Shown piece after piece: positions 4,883 to 6,113 of a stretch of 6,757 bases of DNA. The DNA is from a virus. Taxonomy: Duplodnaviria; Heunggongvirae; Uroviricota; Caudoviricetes. Numbering within the stretch: position 1 is the first letter of the stretch; the number at the start of each line of letters is the position of its first letter. The position numbers and the translations under genes are program-made. The stretch lies in IMG/VR virus record IMGVR_UViG_2526164604_000021. One strand, 5' to 3'. Below the pieces are notes generated by a model that had not been told where the DNA came from, did no database searches, and saw only the letters and a program-made list of their open reading frames with translations.

Positions 4883-5805
4883 ATGACAAATACAGCAAAA
4901 ATACTCAACTTCGGCAGAGGTAACTTTGCCGGACAGGAGCGTAATGTGGCAGATCTCGATGATGGTTACGCCAGACTATCAAATATGCTGCTTGAGGCTT
5001 ATTCGGGCGCAGATCTGACCAAGCGACAGTTTAAAGTGCTGCTTGCCATTCTGCGTAAAACCTATGGGTGGAATAAACCAATGGACAGAATCACCGATTC
5101 TCAACTTAGCGAGATTACAAAGTTACCTGTCAAACGGTGCAATGAAGCCAAGTTAGAACTCGTCAGAATGAATATTATCAAGCAGCAAGGCGGCATGTTT
5201 GGACCAAATAAAAACATCTCAGAATGGTGTATCCCTCAAAACGAGGGAAAATCCCCTAAAACGAGGGATAAAACATCCCTCAAATTGGGGGATTGCTATC
5301 CCTCAAATTGGGGGATTGCTATCCCTCAAAACAGGGGGACACAAAAGACACTATTACAAAAGAAAAAAGAAAAGATTATTCGTCCGAGAATTCTGGCGAA
5401 TCCTCTGACCAGCCAGAAAACGATCTTTCTGTGGTTAAACCGGATGCTGCAATTCAGAGCGGCAGCAAGTGGGGAACAGCAGAAGACCTGACCGCCGCAG
5501 AGTGGATGTTTGACATGGTGAAGACCATCGCGCCATCAGCCAGAAAACCGAATTTTGCTGGGTGGGCTAACGATATCCGCCTGATGCGTGAACGTGACGG
5601 ACGTAACCACCGCGATATGTGTGTGCTTTTCCGCTGGGCCTGCCAGGACAACTTCTGGTCCGGTAACGTGCTGAGTCCGGCCAAACTCCGCGACAAGTGG
5701 ACCCAGCTCGAAATCAACCGTAACAAGCAACAGGCAGGCGTGACAGCCAGCAAACCAAAACTCGACCTGACAAACACTGACTGGATTTACGGGGTGGATT
5801 TATGA
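4883..5805 (+). pseudogene. O: Replication initiator O, reading frame broken by a 23-bp tandem duplication inside ori (listed ORFs 4883..5491 and 5293..5805 are the two frames)
   Basis: The N-terminal ORF (MTNTAKILNFGRGNF...) and the C-terminal ORF (...KPKLDLTNTDWIYGVDL) are both O-like but lie in different frames. SLKLGDCYPS is translated from each copy of the duplicated 23-mer. 923 nt minus 23 gives 900 nt, i.e. 299 codons plus stop, the size of lambda O. Confidence 0.8.
5231..5339. repeat. ori-lambda iteron array with five direct repeats where four are expected; AT-rich region follows at 5340..5382
   Basis: Iterons are at 5231..5248, 5251..5268, 5275..5292, 5298..5315 and 5321..5339. Positions 5275..5297 and 5298..5320 are an identical 23-mer, atccctcaaattgggggattgct. 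Confidence 0.9.
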
Positions 5806-6113
5806 AAAACATCGCCGCACAGATGGTTAACTTTGACCGTGAGCAGATGCGTCGGATCGCCAACATCGATAACCAGGACATGACGATATCGGTCTGGGTC
5901 TTTCCTGATACTGATATTTCAGATGTATCGCGTGAGTTAATTGCGGCAATTAAACAGGGGTATCTAACAGTAAAAGCCGCCGGGGTATGGGCGGGGGGCA
6001 TTGAAACACCTTCGGTGGAAACTCCATCGGAAGGCTCTAAATTTTTTGGTTTTGATATGGATAACGAATTCATCAGTGGTTTTGATGTAGGGGCATGGGG
6101 AGTATTACTCTGA
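5802..6113 (+). pseudogene. P: Chimeric ORF: first 21 codons of replication protein P (MKNIAAQMVNFDREQMRRIAN) fused in frame at about 5865/5866 to the C-terminal part of an unidentified tail-region gene
   Basis: The ATG overlaps the O stop (ATGA), as in lambda. After codon 21 the sequence is unrelated to P as I recall it. The ORF ends in TGATG overlapping the tail-fibre start, indicating a native translationally coupled gene end. Confidence 0.7.

Follow-up and report, generated by a model that had tools for sequence, protein, structure and literature searches.

The open reading frame (ORF) at the centre of this locus begins as the lambda-type replication gene P and ends as tail-gene sequence directly in front of a tail-fibre gene, which raises the questions of how such a chimera arose, where its second half comes from and whether the early promoter PR now reads into the fibre genes to any effect. 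The DNA analysed (hereafter the window) is the whole stretch of 6,757 nucleotides (nt) taken from IMG/VR virus record IMGVR_UViG_2526164604_000021, and the chimeric ORF (5802..6113, + strand) codes for 103 amino acids (aa). The window was found to be prophage Sp1 of Escherichia coli O157:H7 Sakai (NC_002695.2, 300042-310627), the same element as CP-933H of EDL933, which is 10.6 kb in length and resides at tRNA-thrW, between proA-thrW and the P4-like Sp2. It is 99.9-100% identical to Sakai, the sole differences being a copy of the insertion sequence (IS) IS629/IS1203 (1396-2705) and the adjacent 243 bp, and the sequence across the junction is 100% identical in Sakai, EDL933 and over 200 genomes of the O157 type.

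That Sp1 is a defective prophage is already known: it has been described as a highly degraded lambdoid prophage with residual early genes inducible by mitomycin C (PMC2669165), and existing annotation lists the ORF as a P pseudogene (ECs_0279 in Sakai, Z0313 in EDL933). In the Sp1 papers and annotation records examined, its second half is not named as a baseplate-wedge fragment, nor is the fibre-gene induction reported in PMC4048457 tied to PR read-through across the scar. The present analysis adds the wedge identity of the non-P half, an SfI-like ancestry with two deletion scars and a simple account of the SOS induction of the fibre genes. The explanation as a whole, namely an SfI-like prophage in which a deletion joined P to a wedge gene, with PR reading through into the fibre genes of a passively decaying element, is considered likely, and we hold it with good confidence.

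The homology to P covers 64 nt (P', 5802-5865, + strand; 21 codons plus 1 nt), is base-by-base identical to P of E. coli O55:H7 CB9615, and starts at the native ATGA overlap with the O stop. Megablast of window 5400-6757 revealed a break precisely between 5865 and 5866. The left part (5400-5865) matches O-P of phage 21, O276 and numerous further lambdoids with 100% identity, and the right part (5866-6756) shares 97.3% identity with the tail region of the temperate myovirus vB_EcoM-606R2. The original prediction, which had placed the end of the P homology at about 5865 and counted 82 unrelated codons behind it, is thus borne out to the nucleotide. The donor-side 248 nt (5866-6113, + strand) correspond to nt 434-681 of the donor gene, from part of codon 145 to the stop; codon 22 of the fusion is a hybrid ATC (A from P, TC from the donor), and the residues that follow it are identical to the C-terminus of the donor protein (81/81 aa). 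Across the junction the GC content falls from 0.55 to 0.45 and the GC skew shifts from about 0 to +0.28.

This very junction was found in 204 of the 5426 complete E. coli genomes, all carriers listed being of the O157:H7 type, while every other genome among the 5426 matches on one side alone, up to 5865 or from 5866 onwards. Because the same join recurs in 204 independent complete genomes and the rest give one-sided matches, the junction is real and represents neither an assembly artefact nor chance. The join is blunt, without microhomology, since four full-length donor genes read GCAGATAG before and TCGATAACC after the break point, as against GCCAACA and ACATG in P. It is also in frame, an outcome with a prior of 1 in 3. 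The TGA stop of the chimeric ORF (6111-6113) overlaps the ATG of the tail-fibre gene (6113-6115), forming the predicted TGATG coupling (6111..6115, + strand), with a Shine-Dalgarno-like GGGGAG about 10 nt upstream of the fibre start; the same stop/start arrangement is native to the donor phage.

The homology search for the donor, proposed along with the original prediction, identified the fused "tail-gene C-terminus" as that of a DUF2612 baseplate-wedge gene of a temperate myovirus, so that the tail-region origin stands and its precise identity can be added. The donor protein (226 aa) is encoded directly after Baseplate_J and directly before stf, matches, as a full-length protein, Pfam DUF2612 (PF11041; E 2.5e-47, 161.6 bits) and resembles by sequence the solved wedge proteins gp17 of Vibrio phage XM1 (7KH1) and gp23 of Pam3 (7YFZ). 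To count as a member of the family, a protein was expected to carry the Pfam domain over its first 180 or so residues with a score higher than the gathering threshold. The fusion, which retains the last third of the donor protein, matches profile positions 135-177 only, with 20.3 bits against a cut-off of 23.5, and of the syntenic order Baseplate_J, wedge, fibre it has kept the stf neighbour and lost the upstream Baseplate_J to the deletion; it is accordingly classed as a fragment of a DUF2612 family member and not as a member itself. The wedge fragment differs from the 606R2 donor by five nucleotides, all synonymous, and these changes most likely arose while both copies sat in working phages, before the deletion. 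Their reading as a sign of selection on the fusion was rejected, there being no O157 variation to test. The best DNA match to the wedge fragment (98.6%), a prophage of PEC411, is a degraded argW element and was set aside as uninformative on the early region.

Upstream of the junction, the window carries a lambda-type immunity region and PR operon in the lambda order. The repressor gene cI (3424..4137, - strand) is full length (237 aa, HTH_3 and Peptidase_S24 domains) and is followed by divergent PRM and PR promoters, the latter (4185..4213, + strand) reading TTGACT-17-GATAAT with OR operators flanking it, by cro (4238..4438, + strand; Pfam Cro, E 5.9e-35) and by cII (4557..4850, + strand; Pfam Phage_CII, E 2e-47). 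Between cro and cII, in the Rho-dependent tR1 region, nutR (4446..4477, + strand) was read from the sequence as boxA CGCTCTTA and boxB GCCCTGAAAAAGGGC, the box names being those established for lambda. The region of cI-PR-cro-nutR is 97.8% identical to lambda (J02459, 37219-38363), including matches to the rutA/rutB annotated there. The O gene (4883..5805, + strand) is a pseudogene, frameshifted by an exact 23-bp tandem duplication of an ori iteron (TCCCTCAAATTGGGGGATTGCTA; 5276-5298 and 5299-5321), so that translation from the O start ends at 5491 and about 310 nt remain untranslated before P'. The prophage has no functional N of its own: the N' remnant (866..979, - strand) retains 20 codons of N, i.e. 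the ARM peptide (Pfam N36), and continues as unrelated sequence beyond a scar at 919.

PR is the sole near-consensus + strand promoter detected in 4050-6757 by a scan that sees near-consensus sigma-70 sites only, and no + strand intrinsic terminator was predicted from PR to the window end. The claim that the PR operon runs "uninterrupted" into the fibre gene is nevertheless too strong, given the retained tR1/nutR and the untranslated part of O. The course of events may be pictured as follows: upon SOS induction cI would undergo autocleavage and PR would fire, transcription would pass tR1 and the frameshifted O at a reduced yet substantial level and continue through the chimeric ORF into stf and tfa, and mRNA for an orphan fibre and its chaperone would be made without Q and without prophage-encoded N. 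The suggestion that loss of repressor could drive the fibre gene from PR independently of Q or N is therefore supported both by this anatomy and by published induction data.

The expression data come from strand-specific RNA-seq of EDL933, comparing lysogeny broth (LB) with LB plus trimethoprim-sulfamethoxazole and expressed as reads per kilobase and per million reads mapped (RPKM; supplement of PMC4048457). Under the antibiotics the value for cI fell from 552 to 228 and that for cII rose from 8 to 465, the two parts of O rose from 6 to 297 and from 1 to 108, and the fusion ORF Z0313 from 6 to 162 (PMC4048457). Beyond the junction, Z0314 increased from 5 to 92, Z0315 from 5 to 32, Z0316 from 12 to 123 and Z0317 from 2 to 121, while pin (Z0318) went from 12 to 0; the int' remnant (Z0307) rose from 21 to 487, presumably from pL (PMC4048457). 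Taken together, cII, O, the fusion ORF and the fibre genes increase 20- to 80-fold. The authors of that study drew attention to Z0314 and Z0316 as hypothetical genes that resemble tail-fibre genes and are among those with the strongest response to the antibiotics, and left their induction unexplained. That RPKM declines smoothly without jumping at the junction, and that pin is silent, fits a single PR transcript that thins with distance, and the published rise of cII and the induction by mitomycin C are consistent with SOS-dependent derepression of PR. These signals are not mis-mapped from other prophages, because O157 genomes contain one copy only of the fibre-side DNA (5866-6450) and Sp1 cII is <30% identical to the Stx2-prophage cII of EDL933 (comparison from PMC3355084).

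Independent reports agree with this picture. Asadulghani et al. (PMC2669165) found the residual Sp1 early genes to be clearly induced by mitomycin C in Sakai, with no amplification, excision or packaging of Sp1, and ascribed to them an "unknown biological significance". In strain PA20, which carries the junction, 8 of 14 Sp1 genes changed at high sulfamethoxazole-trimethoprim and the prophage did not excise (PMC5931665); these changes are read here as up-regulation, the column header being ambiguous and the Stx2 prophage in the same column being up. The scar, by placing the fibre cassette behind PR, would account both for the mitomycin C induction of PMC2669165 and for the antibiotic induction of PMC4048457. 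PR read-through as such is inferred from the anatomy together with the published per-gene expression.

The tail-fibre gene itself (ECs_0280; 6113..6757, + strand) is represented in the window by the 5' 645 nt of its 795 nt, with a constant baseplate-docking part up to about 6450 and a variable part after it. A Pin crossover site (6441..6464) lies within the gene and marks the edge of an invertible 1.85-kb segment. Beyond the fusion, the Sakai prophage continues with stf (264 aa), tfaE, a tfa and a fibre C-terminal part that are both inverted, and pinE, and then with a LEM-3-like GIY-YIG gene, an AraC regulator, an IS fragment and a 47-bp repeat of the thrW 3' end. The search of the downstream sequence for a fibre-assembly gene, an invertase or lysis genes thus yielded a chaperone (tfaE) and an invertase (pinE) and, in Sakai, no lysis genes. 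The pinE product, encoded outside the window (Sakai L001 11977-12531), is 184 aa long and matches Resolvase (E 8e-52) and HTH_7 (E 1e-15).

The arrangement has both features of a Gin/Cin/Pin switch, i.e. an adjacent serine recombinase and inverted sites in the fibre gene with two orientations observed. Relative to Sakai, the segment between L001 10042/10065 and 11896/11920 (1.85 kb) is inverted in strain Z563, the crossover sites consist of a 15-nt exact inverted repeat within a 24-nt overlap, and several genomes match the window only up to 6464. In the Z563 orientation a 236-aa fibre is followed by the other chaperone, both orientations giving an intact stf plus tfa. Since Z563 carries the segment opposite to Sakai, the inversion switch has evidently been active within the O157 lineage. 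As in the Mu G/Gin, P1 C/Cin and e14 P/Pin systems, a serine invertase stands beside a segment with inverted crossover sites in the fibre gene and a choice of two C-terminal parts with a separate chaperone for each; in Sp1, where inversion of the segment is observed between strains, the switch differs from these in having no virion genes attached and in lying behind an early, repressor-controlled promoter instead of a late one. All four invertible-cassette ORFs, Z0314-Z0317 (Sakai L001 9714-11947), are induced in sense, for which a culture mixed for the orientation of the segment is the simplest explanation.

With regard to ancestry, the early half of Sp1 has its closest intact relative in the Shigella flexneri serotype-converting phage SfI (NC_027339). 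The two share 99.0% identity over int (window 1-919), 97.7% over the 5' end of N (919-1005), 97.4% from cI through P codon 21 (3420-5865, the homology ending at SfI 32201) and 97.1% between the Sakai attR region (L001 15559-15730) and the attP region. SfI, a working temperate myovirus, has the thrW-type int/attP; its lambda-type genes N, rex, cI, cro, cII, O, P, nin and Q precede those for lysis, terminase, head and contractile tail, with fibre genes and cargo adjoining attP. Unlike Sp1, it is complete and functional, its wedge protein is YmfQ-like and not DUF2612, it carries rexAB where Sp1 has another ORF, and its cargo consists of gtr genes instead of pin, the LEM-3-like GIY-YIG gene and AraC, no invertase being annotated in the SfI record. 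The donor-type tail module, 95-98% identical to Sp1 from the junction on, is found in vB_EcoM-606R2/611R5, Salmonella SEN34 and the prophage of strain EC17CM13, in the order Baseplate_J, DUF2612 wedge, stf, tfa, inverted tfa/stf and invertase. These DUF2612 myoviruses, unlike Sp1, have full sets of morphogenesis genes and non-lambda replication modules; in the complete EC17CM13 prophage a lambdoid early region (cI, cro, cII, replication, nin, Q) is combined with a DUF3383/DUF2612 tail.

Because the int/att site, the immunity region and O-P match SfI at 97-99%, the best reading of Sp1 is a single mosaic SfI-like prophage that underwent two internal deletions. The ancestor would have been an SfI-like temperate myovirus with a thrW integrase, lambda immunity and lambda O-P, whose contractile tail had a baseplate of the DUF2612 type and, after it, an invertible fibre cassette with pin beside attR. 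A blunt illegitimate join of P codon 22 to wedge codon 145 then removed ren/nin and Q, the lysis, terminase and head genes and almost the whole set of tail genes, the in-frame join preserving the native stop/start overlap into the fibre gene. In agreement with the claim that nin, Q, lysis, head and most tail genes are missing at the join, intact SfI and the EC17CM13 prophage hold nin, Q, lysis, terminase, head and tail genes between the two junction points, and the loss at 5865/5866 is estimated at about 23 kb on the SfI map or about 28 kb on the EC17CM13 map. The left deletion, at window 919, is a second scar that mirrors the first: an N-terminally truncated thrW-type integrase (int', 1..975, - strand) is joined to N', and about 5.7 kb in SfI coordinates, with xis, exo, bet, gam, kil, cIII and ral, are absent. 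Two candidates for a less degraded relative at thrW were discarded, since the O157 sister lineage O55:H7 CB9615 holds there another complete lambda-like siphovirus, with a different immunity region, effector cargo and an integrase of 68% identity, and O157:H7 strain 1130 holds an unrelated island, then Sp2, and no Sp1.

As to function, the fibre product most likely has no role and reflects passive read-through in a decaying prophage, because O157, at the DNA level tested, lacks a cognate baseplate. No sheath, tube, baseplate, tape-measure or lysis genes were found in the 10.6-kb Sp1. Although R-type (pyocin-like) tailocins are likewise SOS-inducible and phage-tail-derived, of such a structure Sp1 retains the fibre cassette and the 81-residue wedge fragment alone, and it does not qualify as one. 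Of the two outcomes originally proposed, decay or an early step in the domestication of a fibre or tailocin-like function, ordinary prophage decay is favoured and domestication or a tailocin finds no support. The cassette probably survives because the event is recent and not by selection. The significance of the scar is modest, and the understanding of prophage decay is left unchanged by it.

Several observations weigh against this account. The retained Rho-dependent tR1 region, the N of 20 codons and the roughly 310 nt of untranslated O should all attenuate read-through; the expression support consists of per-gene RPKM values and not of a mapped PR-to-stf transcript, and biological replicates are stated in PMC4048457 only for the LB reference and a radish-sprout condition. 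Z0316 and Z0317 are induced in sense, though two of the four cassette ORFs are antisense to PR in any single orientation. The cassette is intact in both orientations and pin still inverts it, which selection would also produce. Finally, no phage or prophage examined has both lambda O-P and a DUF2612 tail, and the ancestor is assembled from mosaic pieces.

It may be supposed, in the first place, that the SOS-inducible, phase-variable orphan cassette (two stf/tfa versions and pin) has been exapted and is kept by selection, either as a fibre donor or as an assembly-poisoning decoy. This is unlikely. In its favour, intact fibre/chaperone pairs (fibres of 264 and 236 aa) are encoded in both orientations, pin is intact and has inverted the segment in O157, the cassette is SOS-induced about 20- to 60-fold (Z0314-Z0317, RPKM 2-12 to 32-123), and the in-frame join keeps translation running into the native TGATG overlap, although for the frame a prior of one in three applies. 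The baseplate, sheath and tube genes are all gone, however, and the part of the fibre expected to dock to the baseplate, its N-terminal 112 residues, occurs in 31 phage records, nearly all of which, among the matches listed, are also DUF2612 matches, with none from Mu, P2 or lambda among them. No second copy of the docking region was found in O157 genomes at the DNA level. Variation of Sp1 within O157 is almost nil, so that selection is not measurable, and the element is missing from at least one O157:H7 strain (1130), lineage II strains having also been scored as without Sp1 by hybridisation (PMC1890555).

A trace of exchange was noted in strain TR01 (L011), where the constant part of stf has 27 substitutions in 200 bp (window-equivalent 6200-6399), with 13 aa changes, and further patches lie to the right in the tfa genes and pin, the remaining Sp1 being nearly identical to Sakai. 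The clustering is as recombination with another fibre gene would give; it suggests recombination with the fibre module of another phage and is the sole hint of cassette exchange. That an SOS-inducible, phase-variable early fibre set is now being used by the host or its phages is, on balance, very improbable. If it were so, the cassette would provide infecting DUF2612-type myoviruses with alternative fibres, in trans or by recombination; by another route, the orphan fibre or the P'::wedge fragment would disturb baseplate assembly and bring about superinfection exclusion.

The induction of the fibre genes might, alternatively, stem from an unrecognised internal promoter or from the regulator of another prophage, the similar behaviour of genes on both sides of the junction being then coincidental. 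The attenuators named above (tR1, truncated N, frameshifted O) should lower read-through, ORFs on both strands of the invertible segment appear sense-induced, and the promoter scan detects near-consensus sigma-70 sites only, all of which would leave room for such a source. We nevertheless regard it as improbable: the values from cII to Z0314 run 465, 297, 108, 162 and 92 with no jump at the junction, no + strand promoter-like site lies between PR and stf, and in the donor phages these genes stand deep in a Q-dependent late operon without a promoter of their own. Moreover, pin, which is directly downstream, is not induced.

The junction could also have been formed by recombination between tandem thrW prophages, one lambda-type and the other a DUF2612 myovirus, and not by deletion within a single genome. 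The failure to find one genome that unites lambda O-P with a DUF2612 tail would be explained in this way, as 611R5 and EC17CM13 have other replication modules and SfI and the H10407 prophage have a YmfQ-type wedge, and thrW does hold the tandem elements Sp1 and Sp2. Yet both attL-int and pin-cargo-attR have their counterparts at the two ends of complete thrW prophages that are single elements. The one in enterotoxigenic E. coli H10407 (L012, 297402-336900) has ends 98.3% and 97.6% identical to those of Sp1 and the same pinE/GIY-YIG/AraC cargo, and its e14/SfV-like interior shows module swapping among thrW myoviruses. Since, in addition, gene order over the junction is collinear with one lambdoid-organised prophage, module mosaicism is evident within the same loci of these phages and two prophages are a less simple assumption than one, a tandem origin seems quite unlikely.

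That 5866-6113 is authentic, divergent P-family sequence can be dismissed with near certainty, being favoured by automatic RefSeq annotation alone and contradicted by the 81/81 aa identity to the DUF2612 wedge C-terminus, by a Pfam signal confined to DUF2612 with no P family, and by DNA homology to P that ends at 5865 in every comparison. The fusion reading therefore withstands the objection most directly raised against it. Full-length lambda P comprises about 233 aa, including regions that bind O and DnaB, and of these residues the chimeric ORF retains 1-21 only. In EDL933, Z563 and TR01 RefSeq labels 5866-6113 as "phage replication protein, missing N-terminus"; this label is judged to be wrong, and the stretch is better annotated as a fragment of a baseplate-wedge protein, namely the DUF2612 C-terminus, than of a replication protein. 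In strain 2452, window 5961-6080 matches (95.8%) a region annotated as "DUF1317 family protein", away from any DUF2612 gene. The minus-strand ORFs across the junction (5714-6445, 6073-6426 and 5454-5777) have no Pfam matches and were treated as antisense artefacts.

The remaining features of the window lie outside the junction. The IS629/IS1203 copy (1396..2705, - strand), a strain-specific insertion, has 25-nt terminal inverted repeats and an ALIL frameshifting pseudoknot (2254-2370), the latter being the sole match of an Rfam scan of the window. It splits an ORF at the rexAB position (2677-3296, minus strand; 166 and 38 aa), which adjoins cI and has no Pfam family; its Sakai counterpart (Z0308) showed an RPKM of 125 in LB and no SOS induction. 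Sakai and EDL933 are without the IS and without the adjacent 243 bp (2706-2948), a difference suggestive of an IS-associated deletion. Opposite the end of cII and antisense to it, the minus strand carries a promoter-like TTGAGT-17-CATAAT (4908-4880) and a strong terminator hairpin (4826-4799), a unit (4799-4908) which sits at the position of the lambda oop RNA and appears intact.

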